From the NCBI GenBank assembly GCA_013791585.1, contig VMTK01000018.1, forward strand, positions 7,316-71,315: a stretch of DNA of 64,000 nucleotides, in the 5' to 3' direction. The stretch is from Candidatus Falkowbacteria bacterium (GTDB lineage: Bacteria > Patescibacteriota > Patescibacteriia > Patescibacteriales > VMTK01). The translations under genes were made by a program, and so were the position numbers. Every line of letters begins with the position of its first letter. Position 1 is the stretch's first letter. Shown piece by piece: positions 3,556 to 49,553 of the stretch. The notes beneath the pieces are model-generated. The model saw nothing but the letters and a program-made list of their open reading frames with translations. It ran no database searches and was not told the origin of the DNA.

Positions 3556-3626
3556 GCCACAGTCTCCTCGCAAGGGACTGTGGCGGACAAATGATCGTCG
3601 CAGTCCTCTGCGGAGAGACTGCGACG
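3556..3626. repeat. two adjacent GC-rich hairpins (GCCACAGTC..GACTGTGGC and CGTCGCAGTC..GACTGCGACG)
   Basis: The second matches the elements found in-frame in pth (49199-49269) and valS (24504-24533). Confidence 0.75.
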
Positions 3627-3707
3627 AGGCGGGGGCAATAATATTCAAAAATTTAGTATTCAAATGCGTATTTTTCTTTAATATTAGCAAAGTTGAATGT
3701 AATTTGC

Positions 3708-6541: not shown

Positions 6542-7378
6542 TTAGGTTGATAATTTTTTTGTTTCCTTATTTTTAAGGAAATTATTTTTAGAAACGATTG
6601 GGCGCTTAATTCTTCTTTCAATTTGTTTTCTGGCAGTGCCGGCAACTTCACCTCCGGCGCGCGCGTCATCTTTTAATCTTGGCACTCCTTTTGAATTTTT
6701 TGTGCGGTGGATTTCGGTTGTTGTTTTTTCGCCGAGCATGGTTAAAATCAGTTCAAAGTCATCCATGTGGTCGCGCAAATTTTCTTTTTTTAATCCTTTT
6801 AACTTTTTATACTCGCCCGGCTTTATTCCGAATGCGGCTTGCGATATTTCAGCGGTAAGTATTTCATAATCGCGGTTAGTTTCCGCTCCGCGTTTTTGCC
6901 ATTCGCCAGTTAGTTCTTCGCGAATAGCGATTCCGCGCATTCTTTTTTCTATCCAGTCTTCAGGATATCCCTTAAGCTTGTATAATAATTTTGTCCGCTT
7001 GGTTGCCAGTTCAGGATCTTCTATTTCTTGTATCCTCTCATAGCCGACTTTAGCCAGCCAGCGCTTCAGCGGCTCTGCTTTTGGCGAGGGGATTGATTGG
7101 ACAATTCTAAACATGCCCTCGGTATTAGCGCAGTCTGTTTCACGCATTTTGCCATCCTCGGCTTGTAATTTCAACTGTTCCCAAAATGGGAACGGTTGGG
7201 ACATTCCCTTGTCCCTATCTTTCATTTTAGCCCAATAAGTTTTAGATTGCGGGCTGTCTGTTAGTATTCCAATAATATCAACAACAGAAAACCACCATTC
7301 TTTTTGAAAAATGGTTCTGCGAATTTTTTTGCCTTTAAACAAGGCAAGGTGGGTATTTTGATTTTGGATATTATTCAT
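6542..7378 (-). CDS. Bro-N/antirepressor-like DNA-binding protein
   Basis: IRRTIFQKEWWFSVVDIIGILTDS N-terminus; C-terminus resembles the DinD-like protein at 28834. Confidence 0.55.
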   Translation of the reverse strand: MNNIQNQNTHLALFKGKKIRRTIFQKEWWFSVVDIIGILTDSPQSKTYWAKMKDRDKGMSQPFPFWEQLKLQAEDGKMRETDCANTEGMFRIVQSIPSPKAEPLKRWLAKVGYERIQEIEDPELATKRTKLLYKLKGYPEDWIEKRMRGIAIREELTGEWQKRGAETNRDYEILTAEISQAAFGIKPGEYKKLKGLKKENLRDHMDDFELILTMLGEKTTTEIHRTKNSKGVPRLKDDARAGGEVAGTARKQIERRIKRPIVSKNNFLKNKETKKLST

Positions 7379-7422
7379 TTATTTGGCTGGGCTTGATTCG
7401 CTCGGGAGCGTTAAGAAAGGAA

Positions 7423-7935
7423 TTATTTATTTGGATTCACGCTTCCCAATAAAACATAGTAAAAAATACGTTTAATTATTTCAAAAGTAATTAATATTAC
7501 AAATAGTCCTGTAAATAAGTATAAAAATGCAATTTCCAAATTACCAACTGATTTATAAAAAGAAATTAACTGATAATTTTTGGTTTTAGGGGCAATTTTT
7601 GATTCGAACATAAGTTGTGAAAATGATATTTTGCCATTGTTTATTATTGTTGGGTCATTAGGGTCGTAAGAACATAATAATTTGAATTTTTTATCGTTAG
7701 ATAATGATATATAACCGTTTGATCCAAGCAATATATTGTTTTCCTCTAAATTAAATTTTCTTTCATTATCACATAAAATATATGATTTATTATTGTCAAA
7801 AGTTTTTATAGGTACAAAGATAAAGTAAACGCCGAATAAAAATATAATTACCGCTGTTAAAAAACAAAAAATATAACAAATTTTTAATAGTCTATACCAC
7901 CATTTTTTATTAAGTGTTTTTATTGTTATTTCCAT
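7423..7935 (-). CDS. hypothetical membrane protein (2 TM)
   Basis: Long ORF with hydrophobic segments near both ends. Confidence 0.5.
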   Translation of the reverse strand: MEITIKTLNKKWWYRLLKICYIFCFLTAVIIFLFGVYFIFVPIKTFDNNKSYILCDNERKFNLEENNILLGSNGYISLSNDKKFKLLCSYDPNDPTIINNGKISFSQLMFESKIAPKTKNYQLISFYKSVGNLEIAFLYLFTGLFVILITFEIIKRIFYYVLLGSVNPNK

Positions 7936-7994
7936 ATGTTTGTGTTTAAAGATAAAAAATAATTTTATTAAATTCGCCTGAGATAGATTTAATT

Positions 7995-8402
7995 TTAAAA
8001 TTTTAATAATGATAATATAAAAAATAAAATATCAATAATAAAAATTATGTATAAAGTTTCTGGCCAGTGAGCGCTACTTTTAGGTTTTGGCGTATCAAAA
8101 TCTTGCCCAAGTTTTTTAATTTTCATTTCTTGCATTACATTAATAAGATAATACATATTTTCACGTGTTTGATCAATGTAAATAGCAAGGCTTACAAGCG
8201 TTATAAATAAAAAAATAGAAAGCGACATACCTGCTAAAATAGAATTTTGAATTATATTTGTTAGAGTAAAAATAAATCCAAAAATTGCCATAGAGATAGA
8301 ACTAACAATAGCAAGTATTTCAAATCTCAAAATCCCCATTTGTTTTAATTGATTATTGCAATCTAAAATAAGTTGGTATTTTATTTTATTTTCATCATTC
8401 AT
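7995..8402 (-). CDS. hypothetical membrane protein
   Basis: Long ORF with several hydrophobic segments. Confidence 0.5.
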   Translation of the reverse strand: MNDENKIKYQLILDCNNQLKQMGILRFEILAIVSSISMAIFGFIFTLTNIIQNSILAGMSLSIFLFITLVSLAIYIDQTRENMYYLINVMQEMKIKKLGQDFDTPKPKSSAHWPETLYIIFIIDILFFILSLLKF

Positions 8403-8481: not shown

Positions 8482-8943
8482 TTACTTCTCTCTCACCTTG
8501 ATAGAAATCTGTTTTGACACTTTGGCTTTTGGCAGGACAATGGTTAAGACTCCGTTTTCCAGCGACGCTTCTATCTCCTGGGCTTTTATTTCAACCGGCA
8601 GGATTATTGACCGCGAGAAGCTGCCCCAATAGCATTCCCGGTATAAATAATCGTCAGCGTCAATATTTTCCTGCGTTTCTCTCTTGCCTCTTATGGTGAG
8701 CATGTCGTTGTTGATGGAGATGTCAATGTCTTCCGGCTTGACTCCGGCAATGGTTGAGGTGACTATCAGCTTGTCGGGAGTTTGGTAGACATCAATAGAC
8801 AGCTGGCCTTCTTCGTAATCATTTTCAAGCCATTCCTCGCCGGCGTTGCTTTCCGCTGAATCATCAATTTCTTCATCATTGCCTCCGCGGCCTGATAATT
8901 TTTTGTCGGAAAATCCCGCTAATTTTTTAAAAAAGTTGCCCAT
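8482..8943 (-). CDS. Hsp20/alpha-crystallin small heat-shock protein
   Basis: SIDVYQTPDKLIVTSTIAGVKPEDIDISINNDMLTIRGKRE ... ASLENGVLTIVLPK. Confidence 0.9.
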   Translation of the reverse strand: MGNFFKKLAGFSDKKLSGRGGNDEEIDDSAESNAGEEWLENDYEEGQLSIDVYQTPDKLIVTSTIAGVKPEDIDISINNDMLTIRGKRETQENIDADDYLYRECYWGSFSRSIILPVEIKAQEIEASLENGVLTIVLPKAKVSKQISIKVREK

Positions 8944-8993
8944 ATTGTTTTTAGTTTTTAAAATTAATTATGCTGTTATTATAAAATTTTTTA

Positions 8994-9027
8994 GAAAATT
9001 AAGCAAGGGATAGCGGTTAATAAAAAA
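8994..9027. repeat. 34-nt direct repeat, left copy (GAAAATTAAGCAAGGGATAGCGGTTAATAAAAAA)
   Basis: 33/34 identical to 18382-18415, same orientation. Confidence 0.8.
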
Positions 9028-9171
9028 TAGTTTTAGGAGCAGCCGCATTTAAAATAAAAAAATCGCTTGAAAATTATTCAGAATTAGGTAAAATGTAAGT
9101 AGTAATATTATGTTTAATGTAAAGGAATTTCAATATTACCATTCGTATGTCCCGCTGTTATGCCTTCGGCA

Positions 9172-9201
9172 GTCCCACTACAAATGGGACACATTCAAAT
9201 A
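9172..9201 (+). promoter_or_regulatory. hairpin-family copy 1: GTCCCA|CTACAAA|TGGGAC + ACAT TCAAATA
   Basis: 6-bp stem, 7-nt loop and tail shared with copies at 12.3 and 14.4 kb; lies in the 5' leader of the 779-aa gene. Confidence 0.6.
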
Positions 9202-9225
9202 GCGGGTTCGCGAAGCGAATAACTT

Positions 9226-11565
9226 ATGATAAAAGAGCAGAGTTTGCCAAATATAAACAATTTTGAAAAGCAGCCGGTGGAGGCTGAAGGGTTTGATATG
9301 GAAGAAAAGAATCGTGATTACGAATTACCGCTGGAAAAAGAAAAAGAAAGTTCAATGGAAATAATGAAGCAAATGGCAGAATATTACAATAAACTAAAGG
9401 AGCTAAAAGGCAAAAGCGGCACGGAAAAAATTAATAAAATAAAAAATTTTATTGGCGGCTCTAAAAATCAACAAGCAAAAATAAACCGTGTAAAAGCATT
9501 TTTGTCGCTTGAGCAAGATCCGGATATGGGAGATAGGATTATGCATTTAGGCGAGCGATTAAAAGAAAAACCAAAATTAGCGGATAAAGTATTTGCTGAA
9601 TACGCGGCAAATGTGGATAGCGCTGAAAAAAATGCCGATGAATTGGCGAAACTGTATAATGAAATATTTTTTGAAAAACAAATTGATCGTAATAAAGCTA
9701 AAATGGCTATGCTGAAAAATGCTGGAAATTTGTTGTATTGGGCGAATGAAGGATTATTCAGCTGTGAAGAGCAAGAAAAGGAAGATATGATTAATGATTT
9801 AATTTTACAGCTTAGGAGACAGGAAAAAGCGCAAAAAGCAATTTTAAATGATTTAAAAAGTTTGGCTGCAACATTAAACAAGAAGTATAAAGAGATTAAT
9901 GATTTATGGCGAAAAAAAGATTGGGATGAAGAGATAGAACTTCAAGCGCATTTTTTGGAGCAAGATGGATTTTCAAAAAAAGAGATTGAATCTCACATAG
10001 AGGCTATGGATGAACCTATAGAAAATTATATAGCTAGCATAGAAGAAAAAGATGAAATAGATAAACAAAAAAAATATGACAGTGAAAGAATTAAAAAAAT
10101 TATTAATAAATTAGAAAATTATTATAGAGAAAATTTATATCTTGATTCAATTTTAAAGTTAAGTGATTTTGCTAAAATTTGGCAAGTTGATGAAAGTCAA
10201 GCCAAAAAGATATTGGAAGATAAACGATTATATCAAGAAGAAAGATATAAGCCGTTTGTTGGCAAGTTTAAAATTTTATTAAAATTTCAACAAAGTTTTG
10301 AACAAAAGATAGATCAATTTATTTATGGTGATGGAATGCCGGAGTTGCCAGAAGGAGTAAAACAGGAAGCGGCTGATTTAATTTTTCAAAAATACCAGGA
10401 AATTATTGATCAAACTAAAATTACTAAGATTCAGCTTAAAGCTTTATTCAAAAATAAGAAAAAAGTTAGTGATGAGGAGATAGATCAAGCCACGGAAATT
10501 ATTATTAAAAAAGCTGACAACTTATTACATAATTTTGCACAGAGATTTAGCCAAGATGAAAAAATTGACGAGAAAGAAATAATAAATGAATTAGAAAACT
10601 ATAAAGCCAATTTAATCTTAACGGCCAGTGTTTGGAAAGCAGCTGATAAAGAAGGCATTAATTTTGAAGACTTGGAAGACGTTAGCTCTGAGCGGAAAAC
10701 AGCAGGTGAAATTACGGAGCATGGCAAGACCATGAAACTGGTTAATGAAATATACGATAGAGAAACAAGTAAAAAACAGCCTTTTATTCCCGGAGGCAAT
10801 ATAAGAAGCGCGATTTCACAATACGCGGCAGAAGCCAGTCCGGAGGAAAGGGAAAGAGCCGGCGAGATTTTAGAGATGATAAATATTTACAGCAAACAAT
10901 ACGCCCATAAACCGAAACTGCGGGAAAAATTAATACAAGGATTTATAGATAAATTAAATACGGCCGGAGACAAAACCGCGATTTATTCTTTTAAGAAAGG
11001 CGGCCATGTTTTAGCCTTTGACAGGTTTGACGATTTGGGAAAAGGCAAAAAATATTTTGGGTCATTCAACGTCCTGCCCGCGCTTACTGATTCGGCTATT
11101 GGCTCGGCTTTGTTGCGGGCAAGCTTGGACAAAGAAGCGGAGCAGTCAGCAGAAATAGAGGCGGACTGCGAGCCTGAAAAATTAATTAGCTCATATTATA
11201 TTGAAAAAGCCGGGTTTGTGGTAAAAAAAATAATCCCAGATTATGGAGACGCGGGGATTACAGCATTTAATATTTCCAGAAAAAAAGAAAACAGCAAGTA
11301 TTATTACAGGGATTACAAGGCGGAAGATTTAAAGAAAGAGCATGAAAATAATTTTTCTAACAATAAATTTAACAAAGACGATCAATATATAATATTAAAA
11401 TTTGAATCAAACGACGGCAAGCCGATAGAAAACGAACAGCAGATTAAAGAAATACTGGATCAAGCGGGCGATTTGATTAATAGCAATGGCTATGTGATGA
11501 CGAGATATATTTTCAGCAAAGACAGGCGGGCAGTTTACTGCGCGTTAGAAAGAGAAGGAAGCTGA
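9226..11565 (+). CDS. large hypothetical protein, coiled-coil N-terminal region, GNAT-like C-terminal region
   Basis: C-terminal SAIGSALLRASL and YYIEKAGFVV resemble GNAT motif A and the YEK.GF motif; rest unassigned. Confidence 0.55.
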   Translation: MIKEQSLPNINNFEKQPVEAEGFDMEEKNRDYELPLEKEKESSMEIMKQMAEYYNKLKELKGKSGTEKINKIKNFIGGSKNQQAKINRVKAFLSLEQDPDMGDRIMHLGERLKEKPKLADKVFAEYAANVDSAEKNADELAKLYNEIFFEKQIDRNKAKMAMLKNAGNLLYWANEGLFSCEEQEKEDMINDLILQLRRQEKAQKAILNDLKSLAATLNKKYKEINDLWRKKDWDEEIELQAHFLEQDGFSKKEIESHIEAMDEPIENYIASIEEKDEIDKQKKYDSERIKKIINKLENYYRENLYLDSILKLSDFAKIWQVDESQAKKILEDKRLYQEERYKPFVGKFKILLKFQQSFEQKIDQFIYGDGMPELPEGVKQEAADLIFQKYQEIIDQTKITKIQLKALFKNKKKVSDEEIDQATEIIIKKADNLLHNFAQRFSQDEKIDEKEIINELENYKANLILTASVWKAADKEGINFEDLEDVSSERKTAGEITEHGKTMKLVNEIYDRETSKKQPFIPGGNIRSAISQYAAEASPEERERAGEILEMINIYSKQYAHKPKLREKLIQGFIDKLNTAGDKTAIYSFKKGGHVLAFDRFDDLGKGKKYFGSFNVLPALTDSAIGSALLRASLDKEAEQSAEIEADCEPEKLISSYYIEKAGFVVKKIIPDYGDAGITAFNISRKKENSKYYYRDYKAEDLKKEHENNFSNNKFNKDDQYIILKFESNDGKPIENEQQIKEILDQAGDLINSNGYVMTRYIFSKDRRAVYCALEREGS

Positions 11566-12320
11566 TCGTATGCCTTTGAGCGATTCCATGTAAACTTAAA
11601 TAATGATTTATTGAATTGATAAATATTTTTATCATTTATAATCATTGATATAATGCCTTTCGTTGAAAGGGAAATATAGGCTACTTTTCCATCGTAAATT
11701 TCAACAATAGAGTTAAAAGGATATTTTAAATGGTCAATAAAACGAAACTCGCTAACTTTCGGGTGATAGTCTTTGAGATAATTTCTAGCGAACAACGTAT
11801 CAATTACTATAATTTTTTTCATAATATTCAGTTGCTCTCTTTTTTTCGCGTGTTCTCTGTTCAGCTTCTCCATATATTTAACAACCGCTTCAACATCCGC
11901 GAAAGTGCAAATTGTTTCTTTGGCGGTCAGCATATCGTCCAAAACTATTTTTAAGCCGTTTATTCCCTCAAAATACCTTACTCCCGGCTTGCCGGAAACC
12001 AGATTAAAATCCGAAACAATGCCAGATAGATTCGCTTCCAGGGTATTTTTCGCTTTTTTAAATTCGCTTTCTTTCTGCTCGGCAAAATCACGCAGTTTTT
12101 CAGGATGGTCCGGGCTGAAATAAGCGACTTTATCCTTGGTTTTCTGCGATGCCAGCCCCTTTTTAACTAATGCTGTTAAGGCATTATAAACAACTCCGCG
12201 CTTAAGCGGGGTTTTTTTAATGATTTTCCCGGCCGAAGATTCGCCGTTCTTTAATAGATATTCATAGACAACGGCTTCATTGGCCGACAGCCCTATTTGA
12301 GTAAAAATGTCTTTATACAT
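11535..12320 (-). CDS. TrmB-family winged-HTH regulator-like protein
   Basis: IGLSANEAVVYEYLLKNGESSAGKIIKKTPLKRGVVYNALTALVKKGL; 3' end overlaps the convergent 779-aa gene by 31 nt. Confidence 0.7.
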   Translation of the reverse strand: MYKDIFTQIGLSANEAVVYEYLLKNGESSAGKIIKKTPLKRGVVYNALTALVKKGLASQKTKDKVAYFSPDHPEKLRDFAEQKESEFKKAKNTLEANLSGIVSDFNLVSGKPGVRYFEGINGLKIVLDDMLTAKETICTFADVEAVVKYMEKLNREHAKKREQLNIMKKIIVIDTLFARNYLKDYHPKVSEFRFIDHLKYPFNSIVEIYDGKVAYISLSTKGIISMIINDKNIYQFNKSLFKFTWNRSKAYDQLPSLSNAQ

Positions 12321-12520
12321 GTTGTTTGCTTCGCAAAGCCCGGCTGCAAATCGGGCGCATGCGAATTAATGTTTTTTGCTTCGCAAAGCCCGGCTACGAA
12401 TCGGGCACATGCGAATTAATGTTTTTTGCTTCGCAAAGCCCGGCTACGAATCGGGCACATGCGAATTAATGTTTTTTGCTTCGCAAAGCCCGGCTACGAA
12501 TCGGGCACATGCGAATTAGC
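12321..12520. repeat. 4 x 50-nt head-to-tail tandem repeat, each unit a nested hairpin
   Basis: Units start at 12321, 12371, 12421, 12471. TTCGCA AA GCCCGG CTACGAA TCGGGC ACA TGCGAA; unit 1 has loop CTGCAAA. The array fills the whole intergenic gap, from the NTase stop codon to the TrmB-like start codon. Confidence 0.95.
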
Positions 12521-13130
12521 TTATGTTTTCTAGAATATTTTTTCTTAATTTTGCCATTTGCTGATTATTTATTTTTAGCTCTTCAGCCTTGCTTGCCTTG
12601 GTTAAAATTTCTTCAATTTCATTATATAAATTAGTTATCTTATATTCTTGGCTTAATTTTTTGAAAAATTTCCAGTCAATATCAACAGCATCCAACATGC
12701 TGATTATGTCAATTTTATCTTTTTCTCCTTTGATTGAATTTTTACGGTCTTGATAGGCAAATAATTTCAGCAGTAAAAGAACCTCAATTTTAGGAACAAT
12801 AAAACCCTCTATGTTTTGCGCGCAGCCGCTTATCTTTTCCAATGGAAAGCCGATTTTTGAATAATGCGGCAGATAAATATCAATATCAAATTCGCCTAAT
12901 TTTATTTCATATTTTTTCAGCCGCTCATTTTTAATGACTTGGTATTTTTCTTTCAGCTTTCCAAGCTCATTATAATCAATAACTATGTCAATATCTTTTG
13001 ACTTCATTTTTTTTGTCCAAAGATAAACAGCCCAGCCGCCGATTAAAATAAAATTAAATTTTTCATTTAATTCCCGCAGGGCTTGATAGCTTTTATCTGT
13101 TATATTGTCATGCCAAAATTGTTTGGTCAT
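12516..13130 (-). CDS. nucleotidyltransferase-fold protein (AbiEii/MenT-like toxin candidate)
   Basis: FILIGGWAVYLW..KSKDIDIVI..FDIDIY (GG..., DxD pattern); 4-nt overlap with the upstream HTH gene. Confidence 0.55.
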   Translation of the reverse strand: MTKQFWHDNITDKSYQALRELNEKFNFILIGGWAVYLWTKKMKSKDIDIVIDYNELGKLKEKYQVIKNERLKKYEIKLGEFDIDIYLPHYSKIGFPLEKISGCAQNIEGFIVPKIEVLLLLKLFAYQDRKNSIKGEKDKIDIISMLDAVDIDWKFFKKLSQEYKITNLYNEIEEILTKASKAEELKINNQQMAKLRKNILENIS

Positions 13131-13708
13131 ATTTTAATTCTTTCTTTTAATTTTTTTAAAAATTCCTGCGCGCACCAGCTATCATCATTCCATAAGTCAA
13201 CGAAAATCTGCCCCAATGTTCCGCATTGGCCGTAATCCTTTAAATATTCATCCTGCTTTAAAACATAAAGATTTTCAGGGCCTTTTTTCGCTGGAAATCT
13301 TTTTTTGATTTCATCAATGTTGGAGCCGTAAATATAAACTTTGCCATAGTCAGACGGCGTTTCCTTGAATTTATATTTATAAGCGCTAAAACTCGCCCAG
13401 ATAATATCCGAGGGCATATTAGCTTCAATTTTTTCAATCGGCTCGCCAACAAAGGTTTTATAGATTATATCTTTACTAAGCTTCCTGTGCGTTCCCCATA
13501 AATAAAGCATTTTTTCAATATTTATCAGCTTAAAGCCGCTGCCGGATACTTGAATCGCTTTAATTTCACGGGGGATTTTTAAGGCGTTAAAGACAGTTGA
13601 TAAGGAAAAATTGAATTTTTTAGCCAGTTCCTGTTGTTGAAAGTTAAAATTGTTTTTTTCTATTGATTGGTAAAGCATTTCGCGCCAAATCACTTCTTTT
13701 TTGAACAT
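13127..13708 (-). CDS. HTH protein, AbiEi-like antitoxin candidate
   Basis: QQELAKKFNFSLSTVFNALK HTH; coupled to the NTase gene. Confidence 0.5.
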   Translation of the reverse strand: MFKKEVIWREMLYQSIEKNNFNFQQQELAKKFNFSLSTVFNALKIPREIKAIQVSGSGFKLINIEKMLYLWGTHRKLSKDIIYKTFVGEPIEKIEANMPSDIIWASFSAYKYKFKETPSDYGKVYIYGSNIDEIKKRFPAKKGPENLYVLKQDEYLKDYGQCGTLGQIFVDLWNDDSWCAQEFLKKLKERIKI

Positions 13709-13750
13709 ATAATTAAGTTGTTTCTAAAATTGATAATAAAATATAGCTTT

Positions 13751-13770
13751 ATTTCTATTATAGTAGAAAT
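13751..13770. promoter_or_regulatory. palindrome ATTTCTA-N6-TAGAAAT upstream of the HTH/NTase operon (possible operator)
   Basis: Read directly, about 45 nt upstream of the start at 13708. Confidence 0.3.
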
Positions 13771-14007
13771 AGAATAAATGTCAAGTTTATTTTAAAGTGT
13801 TCTATAAAAAATGTGAATCAAGGTATTGGCTGTGCAATTAATTATATCACATCTAAAATAATTGTCAAGAAAAAATGATAAATATAATTATTTGATTGTT
13901 TTATATTGTCATTGAAATATGATAAAAATAGCAAAAATATAAATAATCTATTTAAGCTAAAATTAGCTTAATATTATCGCATTTGACAGAAATAAAGTCA
14001 TATACTC

Positions 14008-14036
14008 TTGACAAGATATAAAGGGTATGCTATACT
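14008..14036 (+). promoter_or_regulatory. near-consensus sigma70 promoter TTGACA-17-TATACT
   Basis: Exact -35, 17-nt spacer, 5/6 -10; fires into the ORF-free region 14.04-15.26 kb. Confidence 0.55.
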
Positions 14037-14160
14037 GGTATATCAAGCTAAAAAGATAGCTTTGATAAAAACAGCACTTTAAATTAAAATAAAATACTTT
14101 TCAGTCTTCTGCTTAGCGGGTTAGAGTGGTAATAGCTATAAATAATTATGGCTTTATCCA

Positions 14161-14323
14161 TTAGACTTGCCGCGTAATTAGTTTCTACTGCAATTTCCAT
14201 ATTTTGGCCAAATTTCCCAAAAATTTTTTCAGCTTAGCTCAGGCTAAACCTCAAAAATTGTTTGAAAAATTTGACTCAAAATCTGAAAATTTCGTTACAA
14301 AACTAATTACGCGGCAAGTCTAA
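14161..14323. mobile_element. MITE-like 163-bp element with 24-bp perfect terminal inverted repeats
   Basis: TTAGACTTGCCGCGTAATTAGTTT (14161-14184) and its exact reverse complement (14300-14323); arms continue imperfectly; flanked by TCCA at 14157-14160 and 14324-14327. Confidence 0.45.
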
Positions 14324-14410
14324 TCCAAAAGGCATAAAATTGAAAAATGCTAGCGAGTGGCATTTCTTTCAAGCCAAATGCTTGTCGGCTTGAAAGAAGT
14401 CCAGTCTCTG

Positions 14411-14497
14411 GGATTTGAAACGCGGCGCTACAAATGCCGCCCATCCGAATAAACGGATTTGAAACGCGGCGCTACAAATGCCGCTCGTGCGAATAGA
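14411..14497 (+). repeat. two 44-nt-spaced units GGATTTGAAAC GCGGCG|CTACAAA|TGCCGC + (CCAT CCGAATA / TCGT GCGAATA)
   Basis: Hairpin-family copies 6 and 7 (stems 14422-14440 and 14466-14484). Confidence 0.85.
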
Positions 14498-14552
14498 ACA
14501 GGGATTAAATAGCACATTAAATTAAAATATTATTGTTCTTTATAAATAAAAC

Positions 14553-14727
14553 GCAATCAAGGAAACTAATGAAGAAGATTATTTATAACTATGATTTATG
14601 GCCAAGGCCTAAGTTAAGGTTATAAAGATCAATAAAATAAGTGCATAAAACAGCAAGGGATATCAAATAATAACTAAGCTCTTTAATAATTCATCTATTG
14701 CTCTTCTTCATCATTTTCTTTGATTGC
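14553..14727. repeat. 26-nt imperfect inverted repeats enclosing about 120 nt
   Basis: GCAATCAAGGAAACTAATGAAGAAGA vs TCTTCTTCATCATTTTCTTTGATTGC, 23/26 complementary. Confidence 0.7.
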
Positions 14728-15140
14728 AAAATCAGCTAAAAGCGATTGCTGTAAATTTTAGAATAAAAGCAGATTAAGCCATGCTTGTAATCTGCTTCCT
14801 AAGATATAATAGCCGCTTTAGTTCGTCCCGCTCCAATATAAATTTGGGCGGGAGATGGAATTAATTTTTGAATTATTATTTTAAATAATTATTCAAAAAA
14901 AGCGTAATCTAAATTGCACGAACCAATTTTGATAACGCGCCGCTTGAGTAAATTGTGATTCAGTTGTCTTTAAAAGATGATGAAATCCATTTTAAAGCGA
15001 TTCTGTCAACTGATGTGTTTGCCTCTCGAAAATCCCGAGGGAAGGACATTGGCTGGACGCAAAGTCTTGAACCCGCTTTGTGTCTAGAAATGTCTTAGCT
15101 AATAATTTAGAGCAATCCCGTTATTTATGACGGAGTAAGC

Positions 15141-15261
15141 GTTCTTTAAAACAAAATTTAAACTGAGGCAAAATGGAAATTAAATTTTTTAGTTTTTATT
15201 TTGTCTCAGTTTAGAGGCATAAACATTGAGCCCAGCCCGAGGGGAAATTCGGGCAAGGAGG
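15141..15261 (+). promoter_or_regulatory. 121-nt structured leader, copy 1 (ends in the SD AAGGAGG)
   Basis: 118/121 identical to 17024-17144; 15-bp stem 15160-15174/15198-15212; CCCGA..TCGGG hairpin 15236-15253 next to the SD. Confidence 0.8.
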
Positions 15262-15265
15262 AAAA

Positions 15266-16219
15266 ATGAATTTTTTTCAAATTGATCCGCGACCTGTCGG
15301 CCGTGGAGCGAATGAAAAGTTTTTTTCCGAGAACAGCAATGTCCTCGGAATTGAAGTAACTATTCCTGAGTGGGCATCTCGATGTTCATTTGGGAATATA
15401 GATCATCACGGCTCACAAGACACGGCGGAAACTCCGTCGGCTTGTGAACAAGCCATAAAGTATGGGACGCGATTTTTCGGTCGCCCCTGTTGCGGCGGTG
15501 GCTGGGATACTTATTCGTGTCCCAAATGTGACGGGGCTGATTGTCCTCCGGTTAAACCGGAGGCAATAGTCACTGTTCGCCCTGATGCGGATTCTGTGAC
15601 GGCAATGGCAGTTGTTTTTTCTTGCCTTTTAGGGGGTGGGCGAGAGATTGATCGCGACCTTGTAAAAATGGTCGGAACATTCGACCGACTTGGACATCAT
15701 GCCGAGCAACGCGATGACCGAGTTGTCGCCATTGCCCGAGTCTCCGCAGATTTCAAGCGTTCGCTCACAGAGCGAGTCGCTTGGGTGCAGGGATTGCTCG
15801 CTGGAAACAGTGAGCAGATGGCTGAGGTGGCTGAACTTGTTGCGGAACGCGATAAAGAATTTGCTGAGGCCAAAGTGGCGAGTGAGATTAATCTTGTCGC
15901 TAACGGTCGGATTGCTACGGTTGTTTCGTCGCATCGTTTTGCGACAAACTTGGGTTATGAGTATGCGACAGTTGTCGTAGCTCAAAACCCTGAAATGCCC
16001 GTGAATTTTCGTGACCCGTTCGCTGGTACATACAATAAATTTACGGTGTGTCGGTATAATTCGCACACACCGTGTAATTTACCGGCGGCACTTGCTGAGC
16101 TCCAAGTATTGGAGCCCGGCTGGGGCGGTCGAGGGGATATCTTCGGATCTCCTCAAGGAGTAAACTCTAAACTAACCCTCAACCAAGTGGTTGAGGTGGT
16201 TCAGAAACACCTCAAATAA
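15266..16219 (+). CDS. hypothetical protein with DHH/DHHA1-like motifs in non-canonical order and a Cys cluster
   Basis: GNIDHHG (aa 43-49), VRPDADS (aa 104-110), GWGGRGDIFGSPQG near the C-terminus; RPCCGGGWDTYSCPKCDGADC; strong SD; higher G+C than its surroundings. Confidence 0.7.
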   Translation: MNFFQIDPRPVGRGANEKFFSENSNVLGIEVTIPEWASRCSFGNIDHHGSQDTAETPSACEQAIKYGTRFFGRPCCGGGWDTYSCPKCDGADCPPVKPEAIVTVRPDADSVTAMAVVFSCLLGGGREIDRDLVKMVGTFDRLGHHAEQRDDRVVAIARVSADFKRSLTERVAWVQGLLAGNSEQMAEVAELVAERDKEFAEAKVASEINLVANGRIATVVSSHRFATNLGYEYATVVVAQNPEMPVNFRDPFAGTYNKFTVCRYNSHTPCNLPAALAELQVLEPGWGGRGDIFGSPQGVNSKLTLNQVVEVVQKHLK

Positions 16220-16286
16220 TATTCATCTCTCCCAAGTAAACGCGCGCTTGGGAGAGTAAAAAAATAGCGCTAAAAAAGGTTCACTT

Positions 16287-16325
16287 CGGGTAGGGATAAG
16301 TAGTTTTATTCCTACCCGCTTTTTC
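16287..16325 (+). terminator. rho-independent terminator
   Basis: CGGGTAGG..CCTACCCG followed by CTTTTT. Confidence 0.6.
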
Positions 16326-16494
16326 CAAGATTATCATTTTTATATTTAATAGTTAAATAATATTTTCATACTGCGGTTTTTGCCACAGGGTAATTTACTT
16401 AATTTAGCAAAAAATATAAATGGTGATTTTAGAGGAAGTAATTCTTTAGATTGTTCTTTATAATTAAATAATACATATTAAAAATTTTCATTGA

Positions 16495-16606
16495 TTTCTC
16501 CCTTTCTTTATAAATTCATTTACCTTTTAAGCTGATAAATATTTTTTAGCTTAAAAGGTAAATGAATAAAAATGCTACATTTTTGGCAAAAAAAGAAAGG
16601 GGGAAA
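16495..16606 (+). promoter_or_regulatory. SD-sequestering leader structure upstream of the 109-aa ORF
   Basis: 16495-16509 (TTTCTCCCTTTCTTT) pairs with 16592-16606 (AAAGAAAGGGGGAAA, includes the SD; one G-U); perfect 20-bp inner hairpin 16514-16533/16548-16567. Confidence 0.5.
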
Positions 16607-16608
16607 AA

Positions 16609-16938
16609 ATGAAAAAAGACAGAAAATTTGAAAGCCTCTTGCGTGAGATTCTTGGAGACCCAAATTTTTGGGTTCCTGGAGTTGGAAATGGAGGAATTGA
16701 GGGCGTCCTTGATGCCCTCAATTCTTTAAACGATGCGGAGATAATCCGCATCATTAGGGGAGGAGACAAAGCTAAATCCACCGCTTCGGTGGATTTTGAG
16801 AAAGAGCTCTCTTTAATAGAAGAGAGCATAAAGCGTCAGACAGCAGGAAGTGATCCTGCTTATGACACCCTCTATTACGCGTATGCCAACGCGTATGGAG
16901 AAGTTTGTGCCCTCATAGAAAACCTGCTAAGGGGTTAA
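16609..16938 (+). CDS. hypothetical protein (109 aa)
   Basis: ORF with a GGGGG SD and its own terminator; no recognisable motif. Confidence 0.6.
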   Translation: MKKDRKFESLLREILGDPNFWVPGVGNGGIEGVLDALNSLNDAEIIRIIRGGDKAKSTASVDFEKELSLIEESIKRQTAGSDPAYDTLYYAYANAYGEVCALIENLLRG

Positions 16939-16948
16939 TTGGTTTAAC

Positions 16949-16984
16949 GGGGAGTTTTTCTTGGTAAAAACTCCCCATCTTTCC
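16949..16984 (+). terminator. hairpin terminator GGGGAGTTTTT..AAAAACTCCCC
   Basis: 11-bp stem, 6-nt loop, T-rich tail. Confidence 0.5.
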
Positions 16985-17023
16985 AAATTCACCAATATGA
17001 TTGGCGGATTTAGAAAGGTGATT

Positions 17024-17144
17024 GTTCTTTAAAACAAAATTTAAACTGAGGCAAAACGGAAATTAAATTTTTTAGTTTTTATTTTGTCTCAATTTAGAGA
17101 CATAAACATTGAGCCCAGCCCGAGGGGAAATTCGGGCAAGGAGG
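17024..17144 (+). promoter_or_regulatory. 121-nt structured leader, copy 2
   Basis: 3 substitutions relative to 15141-15261; ends in AAGGAGG 6 nt before the ATG at 17151. Confidence 0.8.
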
Positions 17145-17150
17145 TGAAAA

Positions 17151-17510
17151 ATGAAGAAGAAGTATTTAGAAATTTTTTTTGATAAATGTACTTTTTCTGC
17201 AGAGGATATTGTTTCTTTAGCAGAAGAGGTAAGAAAGAATTTTACTGAGATAAGAATCGTCCCATCCTCAGTATATTCTTATCAAGGAGGAGAGCACGGT
17301 AGCAATCCTCCTAAAACTCGACCAGATGATTGGTCGGGAGTTATTCCTCGTATAAGTGACGGGGATACCCGTGACGGAGATTATCTTCTGTGCCTCGGCA
17401 CTGAGGATAGATACGGATATGTAGACGAGCGAGGGCTTGTCTACAAAAAGGCTTCCTCAATTGAGGAAGCAAAAAAATTTTTAAAGGGGGTGAATAATGC
17501 AAAAACATAA
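17151..17510 (+). CDS. hypothetical protein (119 aa)
   Basis: Strong SD; no recognisable motif; 14-nt overlap with the next ORF. Confidence 0.6.
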   Translation: MKKKYLEIFFDKCTFSAEDIVSLAEEVRKNFTEIRIVPSSVYSYQGGEHGSNPPKTRPDDWSGVIPRISDGDTRDGDYLLCLGTEDRYGYVDERGLVYKKASSIEEAKKFLKGVNNAKT

Positions 17511-18255
17511 AATTTACCCCTCAGGTCTAGAGCAGTATGAACATGCTCTAGGCCTGTACCAGCCTGTGTCGTATTGGCTGGCGCCAGAAGAGCAGACCTG
17601 CCGAGTGGTCTGCAATTTGCGAAGCCGGACTCATGAAGTATGGCTGAGTGAGCCGGCCTATAGGAGTCCGGAGCTTTTGCTCCCAGACATTGTCCATAAA
17701 CTTTGCCATTGCGCTCTGGCGGAACGAGTGGACACGGCTTTTTCCACGATTTGGTTCACTGAAAAATGGAATCAAATCAGCCGGAAAGAGCCGGGACGGT
17801 TCAGTCAGTCCGCCCGGATGCTCTACTTGGCATGGTGCCATGTGGACATTTGGGTCAATGATCTCCGGCACAAACATTGGCCGGAGTTAATCGCTCAGGA
17901 GCACTCCACCTTTGCTCAAGGAGTTGTTATTTTACTCCAAAGGCATGAGTGGGGCATGCTCTCCAGATCTGAGACGCTTCTCGGCTTGGCTCAGCACCAG
18001 GCCGAGCGGGAGCGGCACGGCCTATCTAAATCAGCTGACCTTTTTGCCGTTTTGTCAGCCCATGGCATAGAGGTTGAAAAAAAGATTAAAGGGCTGGCAG
18101 AATTTTTTAAATTTTTGCCGCGCTTGCGTTTTAAGCCGCGCAAGGATTTGAAAATTTTGGAAAGTTCAGTTGTAGAAGTTGCGCGCCGGCTGGAATTTCC
18201 AATTAGTCCCAAACTCGTGTTTAAAAACGGACTATGGGTTTGGGATTTGGGTTAA
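17497..18255 (+). CDS. hypothetical protein (252 aa) with an HExxH-like HKLCH motif
   Basis: IVHKLCHCALAE (Lys where a metalloprotease Glu would sit); SD AGGGGG upstream; translationally coupled. Confidence 0.6.
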   Translation: MQKHKIYPSGLEQYEHALGLYQPVSYWLAPEEQTCRVVCNLRSRTHEVWLSEPAYRSPELLLPDIVHKLCHCALAERVDTAFSTIWFTEKWNQISRKEPGRFSQSARMLYLAWCHVDIWVNDLRHKHWPELIAQEHSTFAQGVVILLQRHEWGMLSRSETLLGLAQHQAERERHGLSKSADLFAVLSAHGIEVEKKIKGLAEFFKFLPRLRFKPRKDLKILESSVVEVARRLEFPISPKLVFKNGLWVWDLG

Positions 18256-18328
18256 AGATTACTTCGTCCACCCGAGGTTTTGGGTTTAACAGCAAGCAAG
18301 GAGCGGATAAGCTTGCAAGGGTTTTAAA

Positions 18329-18358
18329 AAGGAGACATAATGGATTGTCTCCTTTTTT
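18329..18358 (+). terminator. rho-independent terminator AAGGAGACA..TGTCTCCTT + T-tract
   Basis: Read directly, after the last cassette gene. Confidence 0.7.
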
Positions 18359-18381
18359 ATGATTTTTAAGTTTATTTTTAT

Positions 18382-18415
18382 GAAAATTAAGCAAGGGATG
18401 GCGGTTAATAAAAAA
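18382..18415. repeat. 34-nt direct repeat, right copy
   Basis: GAAAATTAAGCAAGGGATGGCGGTTAATAAAAAA; 33/34 identical to 8994-9027. Confidence 0.8.
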
Positions 18416-18502
18416 GGGCTAAACCGCTCGCAGACGATTTAGCCCCTTTACCGTTTCAAATATCTGATCTGAAATCTGAAATCCGACATCAGAAATCCGA
18501 AA

Positions 18503-18613
18503 TGGTGGGCGACACAAGATTTGAACTTGCGACCTCCACGATGTCAACGTGGCGCTCTAATTTACTCCGGTACGCCCCGCTGGGCTACCGGAGCGAGCTG
18601 AGCTGCTTGTTGT
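18503..18613 (-). pseudogene. tRNA-Val(GAC)-like gene with a 37-nt hairpin inserted in the D-loop and no matching 5' acceptor strand
   Basis: 3' half is canonical (CCACG TTGACAT CGTGG AGGTC GCAAG TTCAAAT CTTGT GTCGCCC A CCA). D arm is GCTC AG[CTCGCTCCGGTAGCCCAGCGGGGCGTACCGGAGTAAA]TTA GAGC. The upstream 7 nt do not pair with GTCGCCC. Confidence 0.4.
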
Positions 18614-18618
18614 TTTTG

Positions 18619-18692
18619 TGGACGACACTGGACTCGAACCAGTGACCTCTTCGATGTCAACGAAGCGCTCTAACCAGCTGAGCTAGCCGTCC
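18619..18692 (-). tRNA. tRNA-Val (anticodon GAC)
   Basis: Hand-folded 74-nt cloverleaf: GGACGGC TA GCTC AGCTGGTTA GAGC G CTTCG TTGACAT CGAAG AGGTC ACTGG TTCGAGT CCAGT GTCGTCC A. Confidence 0.85.
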
Positions 18693-18774
18693 GTATCGGA
18701 TGTCAGATTTCGGATATCTGAAATCAGATTGTTAATTTATCCGAAATCCGAGATCTGAAATCCGATATCCGAAA

Positions 18775-18922
18775 TGGTGGGCATAGATGGATTTGAAGCT
18801 CCTCGGCGCTATCCTCGGTGCCGAAACTGGGAAACGGGGCGACATCCACGTTATAAGCGTGGCGCTCTAATTTACTCCGGTACGCCCCGCTGGGCTACCG
18901 GAGCGAGCTGAGCTAGCCGCCC
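18775..18922 (-). pseudogene. aberrant tRNA-like gene (UAU anticodon loop) with the same D-loop insertion, no foldable T arm, plus a stray tRNA 3' fragment
   Basis: GGGCGGC TA GCTC AG[37-nt insert]TTA GAGC G CCACG CTTATAA CGTGG AT GTCGCCC. GTCGCCC pairs with the 5' acceptor directly after the anticodon arm. The gene then ends ..TTCAAATCCATCTATGCCCACCA. Confidence 0.35.
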
Positions 18923-18939
18923 ATTTTTGAAATCTGAAA

Positions 18940-19015
18940 TGGTGCGCCCAGATGGACTTGAACCATCGACCCCCGGCTTATAAGGCCGGTGCTCTAACCA
19001 CTGAGCTATGGGCGC
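18940..19015 (-). tRNA. tRNA-Ile (anticodon UAU as encoded)
   Basis: Hand-folded 76-nt cloverleaf: GCGCCCA TA GCTC AGTGGTTA GAGC A CCGGC CTTATAA GCCGG GGGTC GATGG TTCAAGT CCATC TGGGCGC A CCA. Confidence 0.8.
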
Positions 19016-20618: not shown

Positions 20619-21197
20619 TTGTTAACCTTTATGTCTAATATCACTAAAAAAATATTAAAATTAGCGATTTCAAAAAAATCAGTTTTTACCGCTGATGAGT
20701 TGGCATTGGCATGGAAAATTACAAACAAGAATGTTTTGAGAGTGATGATCAATAGAAGCACTAAAAGCAATATTCTAAAAAAAATCAGGAGAGGAATTTA
20801 TTCGTTGAATGAAAAAGATGTTAATGTTTTTGAGTTAGCGTGCAAGCTTAAAAAAAGATCGTATATTAGTTTTGAAACAGTCCTAAGTAAAGCCGGAATA
20901 ATATTTCAATGGCAGGATAAAATATTTTTAGCCAGCAATAGGACATCGGAGATTAAAAATAAATATGGAAAATTTGTTTATAGAAAAATACCCGATAAAG
21001 CTCTGCATAGCAACGACGGGATAATTAGCAAAGGGAATTATTTTATTGCCACGGAAGAAAGGGCTTTGTGCGATAAAGTCTATAAAGACGGCATAAGTTA
21101 TTTTGACGATTTATCAGGAATAGACAGAAAGAAAATATTGCCAATAGCTAAATTATATAACAAAAGATTAGAGAAAGATATTAGAAAAATAATATGA
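20619..21197 (+). CDS. AbiEi-like type IV TA antitoxin
   Basis: N-terminal wHTH, 4-nt overlap with the AbiEii-like gene. Confidence 0.55.
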   Translation: MLTFMSNITKKILKLAISKKSVFTADELALAWKITNKNVLRVMINRSTKSNILKKIRRGIYSLNEKDVNVFELACKLKKRSYISFETVLSKAGIIFQWQDKIFLASNRTSEIKNKYGKFVYRKIPDKALHSNDGIISKGNYFIATEERALCDKVYKDGISYFDDLSGIDRKKILPIAKLYNKRLEKDIRKII

Positions 21198-21916
21198 AAA
21201 CAGATAAAGAAAAACATAAAAAAATAATGCTGAATATATTGGCTGATATTTCCAAAGATCCTGAATTGTCTGTTAATCTTGGCTTTAAAGGCGGAACTTG
21301 TTGTTATTTTATTTATGGCTTGGATAGATTTTCCGTAGATTTGGATTTTGATTTGCTGAATATGGAGGCAAAAGATTTAGTTATGAAAAAAATGAATGAG
21401 TTATTAAAAAAATATGGAACAGTTAAAAAGGAGGGTGGAGAATCGCGCATGAAATTAAAATATTCAGATGATAGCAGCGCCTTAAAGGTTGATATATCTT
21501 CAAGAGATGAATTAAATTATTTAAATAGCTATGAAATTAAAGATATTGTTTCAAGTGTTCCTTTAAATATATTAAAAAAGGAAGATATTTTTGCCAACAA
21601 GCTTGTGGCTGTTAAAGATAGATTTGAGAATAAATTAGCAAATAAAATAATAGCAAATAGGGATATTTATGATATTAATTTTTTCTTTAATAAAAATTGG
21701 GGGATTAATTATGAAATAATCGCGCTCAGAAGAAAAAAAGACGCGAAATCATACCTTAAAGAATTAATAGAATTTATAGAAAAAAAAGTTGATAATAAAA
21801 GAATTCTAGACGGAATCGGGGCTTTGGTTAGCGATGAAAAAAGAGAATGGGTAAAAAATGAATTAAAAAATGAGGTTATCAAGCAGTTAGCTATTCAAAT
21901 TAAGTCAATGGAGTAA
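21194..21916 (+). CDS. AbiEii/AbiGii-family nucleotidyltransferase toxin
   Basis: FKGGTCCYFIYGLDRFSVDLDFD matches the GGTAL..R.S.DIDF signature. Confidence 0.75.
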   Translation: MKTDKEKHKKIMLNILADISKDPELSVNLGFKGGTCCYFIYGLDRFSVDLDFDLLNMEAKDLVMKKMNELLKKYGTVKKEGGESRMKLKYSDDSSALKVDISSRDELNYLNSYEIKDIVSSVPLNILKKEDIFANKLVAVKDRFENKLANKIIANRDIYDINFFFNKNWGINYEIIALRRKKDAKSYLKELIEFIEKKVDNKRILDGIGALVSDEKREWVKNELKNEVIKQLAIQIKSME

Positions 21917-48908: not shown

Positions 48909-49553
48909 CTACTTTGATTCAGCGATTATTTCCAAAATTAAATTATTAATAATTTCCATCTCTTCTTCGCTAAATTTTTGCAAGACAAATTTCTCTACAG
49001 GTATTTTATCAGCCGTTTCTGTTTTAATTCCGATTCTAATTCGTTTAAATTTTTTGGTTTTAAGATGATTGATAATTGACTGTACTCCGTTGTGCCCGGC
49101 GCTTCTTGAATCAGTTGAGATTTTATATTTGCCCAGCTCAATGTCAATATCATCGTGGATTACCGTGAGGATATCGGATAGATTAACCTTTTTCGCCTCG
49201 TCGCAGTCTCTCCGCAGAGGACTGCGACGGAACAGGAATCGCCGCAGTCCCCTTCGGGAGACTGCGGCGGAGCAGTGGGAGGGTAGTAATTTATAATAAG
49301 ACAAAATCGCTTGAACCGCTTGTCCGGAATTATTCATAAAAGTTTGCGGTTTGGCAAGAATTAATCTCCCGCTTTCTCCCTCTCCTTGCGAAGGAGAGGG
49401 TTGGGGCGAGGTAATATCAGCGTTGAATTTTTTATTAAATTTCCAAACTGAATTATATTTTTCAGCCAGAGCGTCAACTGCCATAAAACCGGCATTGTGG
49501 CGGGTGAGTTTGTATTTTTCGCCCGGGTTGCCCAGGCCGATTATTATTCGCAT
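48909..49553 (-). CDS. pth: peptidyl-tRNA hydrolase with two palindrome-derived inserts
   Basis: MRIIIGLGNPGEKYKLTRHNAGF, PQTFMNNSG, SAGHNGVQSI; inserts encoded at 49199-49269 and 49366-49411. Confidence 0.9.
   Translation of the reverse strand: MRIIIGLGNPGEKYKLTRHNAGFMAVDALAEKYNSVWKFNKKFNADITSPQPSPSQGEGESGRLILAKPQTFMNNSGQAVQAILSYYKLLPSHCSAAVSRRGLRRFLFRRSPLRRDCDEAKKVNLSDILTVIHDDIDIELGKYKISTDSRSAGHNGVQSIINHLKTKKFKRIRIGIKTETADKIPVEKFVLQKFSEEEMEIINNLILEIIAESK

Follow-up and report, generated by a model that had tools for sequence, protein, structure and literature searches.

A 34-nt direct repeat brackets a composite island with no detectable recombinase gene beside a tRNA operon of a Candidatus Falkowbacteria bacterium

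Cis-mobilizable elements (CIMEs) are flanked by attachment (att) sites and have no genes for integration or transfer (PMC5704250). Tycheposons encode tyrosine or serine recombinases together with replication genes, and have partial tRNAs of about 40 nt as att sites (bioRxiv 10.1101/2020.12.28.424599). There are also many hotspots of horizontal transfer that contain no mobile-element genes; their contents are turned over through homologous recombination, above all in species capable of transformation (PMC5635113). The locus considered here lies within 64,000 nt of the genome of a Candidatus Falkowbacteria bacterium (assembly GCA_013791585.1, contig VMTK01000018.1, positions 7,316 to 71,315), referred to below as the window. 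In this genome, which belongs to the Candidate Phyla Radiation (CPR), two nearly identical copies of a 34-nt sequence (the 34-mer) bracket a 9.4-kb island between a tRNA operon and the gene encoding an Hsp20 protein. The pair of repeats with the DNA between them records a real insertion at a hotspot of gene exchange; insertions of this kind are broadly familiar, and the finding does not in itself reveal a new mechanism. What is distinctive is the CPR host, a target made up of a terminator tail and a -35 box, and an unusually complete series of empty, intermediate and full sites. I consider it probable, at roughly 0.6, that the repeats are an att-like target duplication around a composite, integrase-less island comparable to a CIME, produced by att x att integration and subsequent accretion.

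In common with CIMEs, the island has direct repeats at both ends and no integrase or transfer genes, it lies beside a tRNA locus, and it exhibits accretion of several modules at one site as well as a stabilizing pair of the toxin-antitoxin type. By its structure it may be classed as a CIME (attL and attR kept, genes for integration and transfer absent); the likeness is one of structure, and mobilization in cis is putative. It differs from CIMEs in having no identifiable parental integrative and conjugative or integrative and mobilizable element, no integrase family and no relaxase remnants, in the position of the repeat, which spans a terminator tail and a -35 box rather than covering the 3' end of a target gene, whether tRNA or other, and in its CPR host. 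With tycheposons and similar tRNA-proximal islands it has in common a variable, tRNA-adjacent location in a small genome, degraded tRNA copies nearby, stacked insertions of differing ages and contents that are mostly cargo, but no recombinase is found here, and the att-like repeat is separated from the last tRNA-like gene by 88 nt. The integrase-free hotspots provide a third comparison, with their core-gene flanks (here DHH and the tRNAs on one side, Hsp20 on the other), cargo that differs in nearly every species, lack of mobility genes and, in this window, a gene for DprA. Homologous recombination alone, however, does not make a 34-nt target duplication, so that an extra event is required. 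Exact duplication of host sequence at both ends of an insert recalls transposons and casposons, but 34 nt is much longer than their known duplications, and terminal inverted repeats, transposase and Cas1 are lacking. As a classical integrative element the island fails on two defining features, an integrase and an att site overlapping a tRNA gene. Identification as a transposon, a miniature inverted-repeat transposable element, a dispersed repeat or an integrative mobile element exploiting Xer (IMEX) was rejected on the features compared.

The 34-mer reads GAAAATTAAGCAAGGGAT(A/G)GCGGTTAATAAAAAA on the plus strand and TTTTTTATTAACCGC(C/T)ATCCCTTGCTTAATTTTC on the minus strand, the sense of the Hsp20 and tRNA genes. 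Its two copies have the same orientation and are identical at 33 of 34 positions. An earlier note, made by a model from the letters of the window, had reported the repeats and judged them unlikely to be a product of chance; their coordinates, orientation and identity were confirmed, and no match was obtained in 100 dinucleotide-preserving shuffles. Alignment of the flanks of the two copies shows an abrupt loss of identity at either end. There is no third copy in the window, even with up to 3 mismatches allowed, and neither half of the 34-mer is found elsewhere in the window above chance. The note had also considered that the 34-mer might be a common dispersed intergenic repeat. It is not: only two copies occur in 64 kb and one per locus in relatives, where it is invariably upstream of Hsp20, and a dispersed repeat resembling repetitive extragenic palindromes was rejected. 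The window has many short tandem intergenic motifs, and the 34-mer is not among them. I will refer to the loci or contigs from related genomes that were compared with the window by L numbers. Exact scans of public genome and metagenome contig collections with a 21-nt core gave no matches, in collections that evidently do not hold contigs of this population; a second metagenome scan, with the promoter part of the 34-mer, retrieved only the contig of L079, and this genome is evidently not in those collections either.

Two further sequences resemble the 34-mer. One, TTATTATTTGATATCCCTTGCT (14651-14673, minus strand, in a non-coding part of the island), matches it at 18 of 22 positions in the same orientation. 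As a decayed third copy it is marginal, with a score of 24 against a null maximum of 20.1 +/- 1.9 (largest null 27) and no supporting context. The other is the 14-mer ATAGCGGTTAATAA, found just past the tRNA terminator in L076-L080 (L076 3253-3266), which is the exact reverse complement of window 9011-9024 in the left copy and belongs to a near-palindrome, GCGGTTA-A-TAACGGC.

Sister lineages provide evidence that the repeats mark an insertion. The closest homologues of the window's Hsp20 led to L060 (95% amino acid and 92% nucleotide identity), L064 (86% amino acid identity) and L061 (85%). The order in L060 is tRNA-Ile, tRNA-Val, hairpin, TTTTTGCTGTCCATCCCTTGCTTAATTTTC, TAAAAAATTTTATAAT and Hsp20, and the same single-copy architecture is found in L061, L062 and L064. 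In a BLAST comparison, nt 143-326 of L060 correspond to window 18560-18374 and nt 301-840 to window 9011-8475, so that 26 nt (301-326) align to both copies in the window. Coming from the tRNA side, the window sequence at the right junction agrees with the empty sites through the repeat, and at the left junction it agrees with them from the repeat into Hsp20. The boundaries of the 34-mer copies are the exact boundaries of the DNA that the empty sites do not have. The earlier note had proposed a search for just such a site, and it exists in L060, L064 and L061/L062, a single copy joining the outer flanks of both window copies. By this comparison the bracketed DNA is an insertion relative to the sister lineages, and it is one relative to more than 20 further species as well. 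At the one variable position, the right copy and L060 both have C (minus strand), and the right copy therefore represents the ancestral state.

The position of the 34-mer suggests what it does. On the tRNA side, the T-run of the right copy abuts a hairpin that closes the operon of tRNA-Ile(TAT), an Ile-like gene, tRNA-Val(GAC) and a Val-like gene, exactly as at the empty sites, and this is its native context. The hairpin in the window has a folding free energy (dG) of -25.9 kcal/mol (z = -4.3). Across four lineages the values run from -25.9 to -35.2 (z from -4.3 to -6.1), and that of L061 has changes on both arms (GAGGC...GCCTC). Hairpin and T-run together have the form of a canonical intrinsic terminator. 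No hairpin precedes the T-run of the left copy (the 61 nt upstream fold with dG -3.9, z -0.1), and as regards its T-run the left copy is an orphaned duplicate. On the Hsp20 side the situation is reversed. The left copy contributes the -35 box of Hsp20 (TTGCTT, 9001-9006), about 50 nt upstream of the start codon, and the -35 box, 17-nt spacer and -10 box are conserved in L060, L061-L063, L064 and L076-L080; the -35 box of the right copy has neither a -10 box nor a gene behind it. The 34-mer may thus be read as the U-tract of the tRNA-Ile/Val operon terminator joined to the -35 region of the Hsp20 promoter, each copy probably doing only one of the two jobs, the right one termination and the left one promotion of Hsp20. 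Since the right copy is still joined to the hairpin, the tRNA operon would still terminate, and since the left copy is in register with the -10 box, Hsp20 would retain its promoter. With both signals kept, duplication of the target would let DNA enter a very tight terminator/promoter junction without damage to it.

The island is not the product of a single event. Members of the 90% cluster of Hsp20 led to five contigs, L076-L080, whose Hsp20 is 96-98% identical and which exhibit an intermediate state. Their order is tRNA-Val, hairpin, TCTTTAATTTATAGCGGTTAATAACGGC…, a p193 homologue, a DUF6036 homologue, …CTGCTTCCAAAACTA, TTTTTTGTTCAAAACATCCCTTGCTTAATTTTCC, the -10 box and Hsp20, and they hold only 1.25 kb of the island, the p193/DUF6036 pair (module A in Table 1). 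Homology on the Hsp20 side extends 15 nt past the repeat into the island (to window 9042), from which it follows that the Hsp20-side island junction is common to the window and L076-L080. What the window has in addition is Block B, which sits in the last codons of DUF6036 at the 3' end of module A, Block C and the right 34-mer. The comparison argues for an island grown by accretion of at least three modules, with the p193/DUF6036 pair probably the older and the blocks p779-TrmB-array and leader-p317-p109-leader-p119-p252 probably added later. The AAAACTA|T-run junction common to the two lineages could reflect shared ancestry or two independent site-specific insertions of related elements. Homology boundaries fall repeatedly just upstream of -35 boxes (at 13785, by the p193 promoter, and at GCCCTTGCTT in the L063 rearrangement), which suggests that modules are exchanged, or survive, as units running from promoter to terminator. 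The post-terminator sequence of L076 seemed to resemble the stretch in front of the window's p193 promoter, but the resemblance scored below the shuffle mean and was rejected.

Table 1. Features of the island and its flanks. Positions are those of the window.
Feature	Position	Strand	Remarks
Hsp20 gene	8482-8943	-	conserved left-flank core gene; Pfam HSP20 9e-21; synteny in 23 loci
Hsp20 -10 box TATAAT	8978-8983	-	17 nt downstream of the -35 box in the left copy
Left (Hsp20-proximal) 34-mer copy	8994-9027	-	reads TTTTTTATTAACCGCTATCCCTTGCTTAATTTTC
Composite inserted island, 9,354 nt	9028-18381		missing from L060, L061, L064 and from the same position in >20 other species
Island end beside left copy (…GCTGCTCCTAAAACTA)	9028-9042	-	homologous to DNA just downstream of DUF6036 in L076-L080
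Block B	9043-12531		window lineage only; p779, TrmB-like regulator, 50-nt hairpin array
p779	9226-11565	+	Block B; near-orphan
TrmB-like regulator	11535-12320	-	Block B
50-nt tandem hairpin array	12319-12518		Block B
DUF6036/AbiEii-like nucleotidyltransferase	12516-13130	-	Module A
Module A	12532-13785	-	88.8% nucleotide identity with L076-L080
p193	13127-13708	-	Module A; helix-turn-helix (HTH) partner of DUF6036
Module A promoter TTGACA-16-TATAAT	13757-13784	-	
Block C	13786-18381	+	window lineage only; non-coding stretch, leaders, p317, p109, p119, p252, terminator
Leader copies, 126 nt	15141-15266 and 17024-17149		Block C
p317	15266-16219	+	Block C
p109	16609-16938	+	Block C
p119	17151-17510	+	Block C
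p252	17497-18255	+	Block C
Block C terminator	18326-18357		
Right (tRNA-proximal) 34-mer copy	18382-18415	-	reads TTTTTTATTAACCGCCATCCCTTGCTTAATTTTC
Intrinsic-terminator hairpin, tRNA-Ile/Val operon, GGGGCTAAATCGTCTGCGAGCGGTTTAGCCC	18416-18446	-	predicted from folding and conservation in four lineages
tRNA-Val-like pseudogene	18503-18604	-	3' two-thirds = intact second tRNA-Val(GAC) of L079, L062
tRNA-Val(GAC)	18618-18692	-	conserved right-flank tRNA operon (18618-19015)
Ile-like pseudogene	~18775-18925	-	right-flank tRNA operon
tRNA-Ile(TAT)	18940-19015	-	right-flank tRNA operon

The interval in which the island lies is variable throughout the group. The window is 100% identical to Patescibacteria/Falkowbacteria assemblies, including GCA_018899175.1, and 43 loci from other species were fetched with the DHH gene as anchor (51-73% identity). 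The backbone ValRS (minus strand), DHH, tRNA-Ile(TAT), tRNA-Val(GAC), Hsp20, DUF3006 and VanW is found in 23 of the 43, and in these the distance from DHH to Hsp20 ranges from 295 nt (L020, L022) to 6,034 nt (L032). More than 20 other Falkowbacteria species have inserts of 0-6 kb between DHH/tRNAs and Hsp20, unrelated to one another; they include genes for a histidine kinase, an ABC transporter, a HAD hydrolase, a GIY-YIG protein, AbiE and Bro-N. None of the 23 backbone loci has the window's island genes at this position, and no related element bearing an integrase occupies the hotspot in any of the 43 loci. By these comparisons the DHH-Hsp20 interval is a hotspot of horizontal transfer between core genes.

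Turnover at the level of strains can be seen in another species, where L061, L062 and L063 have an identical Hsp20 protein and different upstream DNA: L061 is empty, L062 has a 211-amino acid gene, PfkB and a second tRNA-Val, and in L063 the 211-amino acid gene is joined straight to GCCCTTGCTT with no terminator hairpin. L076-L080 provide a second set of strain-level variants. The neighboring intervals of the window have insertions as well. An AbiEi/AbiEii pair (20619-21916) lies between ValRS and DHH, where it is missing from all related loci, including the 97% relative L076, and p135, p170 and Bro-N (6542-8402) lie between Hsp20 and DUF3006. The latter interval holds a GNAT acetyltransferase and Bro-N in the 96-98% relatives L077-L079, an HTH_3 gene in L060 and L061, and nothing in most species; it is a second small hotspot.

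How did the island come to be bracketed by the 34-mer? The earlier note had remarked that no recombinase is encoded inside it, and this holds: none of eight island open reading frames (ORFs) matched a recombinase or transposase family in Pfam, PHROGs, NCBIfam or PADLOC, and PDB sequence searches and one structure model revealed no recombinase either. Neither transposase nor Cas1 was found in island or window; terminal inverted repeats are lacking at the island ends (the best end-to-end score was 17, against 16.8 +/- 2.6 for shuffled sequences), and searches for relatives of p317, p779 and p252 among viruses, phages and plasmids gave none. The remaining genes of the window are housekeeping genes, including those for DprA and topoisomerase I. 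Under the reading I prefer, an incoming circular DNA would have carried a 34-mer identical to that in the chromosome, and reciprocal recombination between the two (att x att, of the Campbell type) would have given rise to the duplication. The catalyst might have been a site-specific tyrosine recombinase encoded elsewhere or since lost, which would leave the island in a CIME-like state, or else the homologous recombination machinery of the host acting on a short identity. The gene content would then have been remodelled through accretion at the hotspot. What the sequences show directly is a duplicated target, empty sites in relatives, a repeat with the anatomy described, and a composite island with no recombinase; the chemistry of integration and the order of events are inferred.

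Several observations weigh against integration of this kind. The search for a recombinase was equally negative in the rest of the window, among ORFs of at least 150 amino acids other than one of 1,166. Contigs of the same strain, from many samples, that contain exact Hsp20 (19) or exact p252 (23) all show occupied junctions, with no circular or alternative junction among these 19 + 23 assembled contigs. The 34-mer begins after the operon terminator and overlaps no tRNA gene, unlike the classical sites of tRNA-targeting integrases. A general site-specific system at the hotspot is not demonstrated, because no repeat of 16 nt or more brackets the inserts that nine other species have at this spot, nor does one bracket the window's two other insertions (AbiEi/AbiEii and p135-p170-Bro-N). 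L076-L080 have no second copy of the -35 part, and between their orthologue of the left copy and that of the window there are differences at about 8 of 34 positions, all of them within a 10-nt patch, as compared with 1 of 34 between the window copies. The junction being common to L076-L080 and the duplication not, the near-perfect duplication must be younger than the shared junction or independent of it, and a single integration of all 9.4 kb cannot account for everything that happened here. The suggestion in the earlier note that the 34-mers are att-type repeats of an integrated element is therefore borne out to the extent that they bracket DNA inserted relative to relatives; that all 9.4 kb is one element is not shown, L076-L080 holding 1.25 kb of it.

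These same facts lend themselves to an account in two events, which I regard as unlikely. The left copy would stem from the old insertion of module A, and the right copy would be either the untouched native site or a sequence that came in together with Block C when DNA of another strain was taken up by double homologous recombination. The near-identity of the copies would then come from replacement or gene conversion of the hypervariable 10-nt patch and not from a single integration. The Hsp20-side junction and module A, being common to L076-L080, make the junction older than the blocks specific to the window; the 10 nt between T-run and -35 box differ between L061 and L062 as well, despite their identical Hsp20 protein; DprA is encoded in the window; and hotspots without mobile-element genes turn over by way of flanking homologous recombination (PMC5635113). 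Even so, some event would still have to put the segment from T-run to -35 a second time on the other side of the island, conversion is unlikely between 34-nt tracts that lie 9 kb from each other and have 8 differences, and the possible decayed third copy is only marginal. A quite different and decidedly improbable account is that CPR bacteria have an undescribed means of inserting promoter-to-terminator cassettes where a terminator meets a promoter, with duplication of about 34 bp of the target (the size of a repeat in clustered regularly interspaced short palindromic repeats, CRISPR) and no element-encoded recombinase. If it is true, the recurrence of the AAAACTA-T-run end in two lineages would reflect independent site-specific events and not shared ancestry.

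The remaining explanations have still less to recommend them. A target-site duplication made by a transposase-like or Cas1/casposase-like integrase, through a 34-nt staggered cut and gap fill-in, would account for two copies of host sequence that end exactly at the insert, and 34 nt is within the length range of CRISPR repeat duplications. It is also far above the known lengths of target duplications made by transposons or casposons, and with no terminal inverted repeats, no transposase or Cas1, a composite island and one junction common to relatives that do not have the duplication, I give this explanation little credence. I give slightly less to the 34-mer as a regulatory motif, a promoter or operator (for the island's TrmB-like protein, for example) kept by selection rather than left as a scar. 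The -35 box is conserved, and so is the CCCTTGCTTAATTTT part across lineages; the right copy, however, has no -10 box or gene and runs directly into the terminator, the T-run of the left copy is an orphan, the copy boundaries match those of the empty sites, and relatives have one copy, always before Hsp20. That the island is ancestral and the single-copy sites arose by deletion is very improbable, even though recombination between direct repeats leaves exactly one copy and looks the same as an empty site: the compact order is found in many species across the clade with no island genes, the state of L076-L080 is not obtainable by deletion from repeat to repeat, and parts of the cargo are foreign in composition and present at other loci elsewhere. 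Least probable of all is an IMEX-type element inserted by the host XerC/D at a dif-like site. Such elements have no recombinase and are flanked by two dif-like direct repeats of roughly 28 nt. The 34-mer, though, does not have the 11-6-11 palindromic architecture, only ATTAA...TTAAT, the cumulative GC skew climbs steadily through the region with no terminus-like switch, and relatives conserve the site as a junction of terminator and promoter.

The cargo is a mosaic in GC content, with p317 and p252 at 50%, and p779, TrmB, DUF6036 and p193 at 30-37% (DUF6036 lowest, at 30%), as compared to 38% for the window. The inventory in the earlier note (a 779-aa ORF, a TrmB-like gene, the 50-nt hairpin array, the HTH/DUF6036 nucleotidyltransferase pair, the repeated 126-nt leader and cassettes of about 50% GC) is correct, except that its description of p779 as GNAT-like has little behind it: this near-orphan has no Pfam match and a faint match to an acetyltransferase in PDB (E=0.33). 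The p317 family, uncharacterized and with no Pfam match, has more than 120 CPR proteins or clusters and an invariant DHH motif, and a confident model (predicted local distance difference test score 90) gives p317 a putative DHH/DHHA1 phosphoesterase fold, as in NrnA, GdpP and RecJ-like proteins. A conserved HExxH motif (consensus HELCHA) and faint matches to Peptidase_M78/SprT characterize the family of p252 (121 representative clusters), and p252 is probably a member of an HExxH metallopeptidase-like family; the window's p252 reads HKLCH, Lys replacing the catalytic Glu. DUF6036 and p193 look like a toxin-antitoxin pair of the AbiE type. A p109+p317 pair (75-83% identity) lies at another chromosomal site in L065, beside alaS and ribosomal genes, and the unrelated genome L066 has a divergent TrmB (40%)/p317 (57%) pair, in the same pairing as in the window. 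Parts of the cargo are thus mobile over evolutionary time. A 296-amino acid DHH-like ORF in L017 was considered as a p317 homologue and was not supported by BLASTP.

The non-coding portions of the island are also structured. The two leader copies, 96% identical, are directly upstream of p317 and of p119-p252, and contain a long hairpin (AAACTGAGGCAAAA…TTTTGTCTCAGTTT), a GC hairpin and a Shine-Dalgarno sequence; no DNA matching the leader lies upstream of the p317 homologues of L065, L066 and L068. The array of Block B runs between the start of TrmB and the stop of DUF6036. Each of its four tandem 50-nt units contains a GC-rich hairpin, and in L003 and L011 the array is one unit shorter. Two related 44-nt units (14411-14495) lie in a 1.4-kb stretch of Block C that has no ORF longer than 48 amino acids.

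The tRNA operon has features of its own. The earlier note was correct in placing the right copy 88 nt from the 3' (CCA) end of a tRNA-like gene, and the gene is a degraded second tRNA-Val, not overlapped by the repeat, with a 33-nt hairpin in its D-loop and its 5' acceptor strand replaced. After each of the canonical tRNAs (Val-GAC and Ile-TAT) comes a tRNA-like gene whose anticodon loop is the same and whose D-loop contains an inserted hairpin of about 33 nt, and the two pseudogenes have in common a 76-nt repeat with 93% identity. Both are missing in L060 and present in L061. Assembly breaks at window 18885 were rejected as a variable junction, the 76-nt pseudogene repeat explaining them. Elsewhere in the window, a perfect 36-nt inverted repeat, CGTCGCAGTCCTCTGCGGAGAGACTGCGACGAGGCG, has its arms, each a hairpin, 45 kb apart (3596-3631 and 49194-49229). 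Tandem arrays of the 8-nt motif AAACAC[A/G]A and other arrays of 7-8 nt (CGCATAA, GAAATTT/GAAATCC) fill many intergenic regions and flank tRNAs (examples at 2120-2205, 23035-23392, 33097-33789, 34875-34999 and 35562-35672).

The empty, intermediate and full states of this locus document the gain of accessory genes at a single tRNA-adjacent hotspot in a very small CPR genome with no visible mobility genes, by way of a duplicated target that preserves both the terminator and the promoter. They are of use in the annotation of CPR genomes, where islands and pseudo-tRNAs are easily overlooked, and they bear on the question of gene flow in the CPR.

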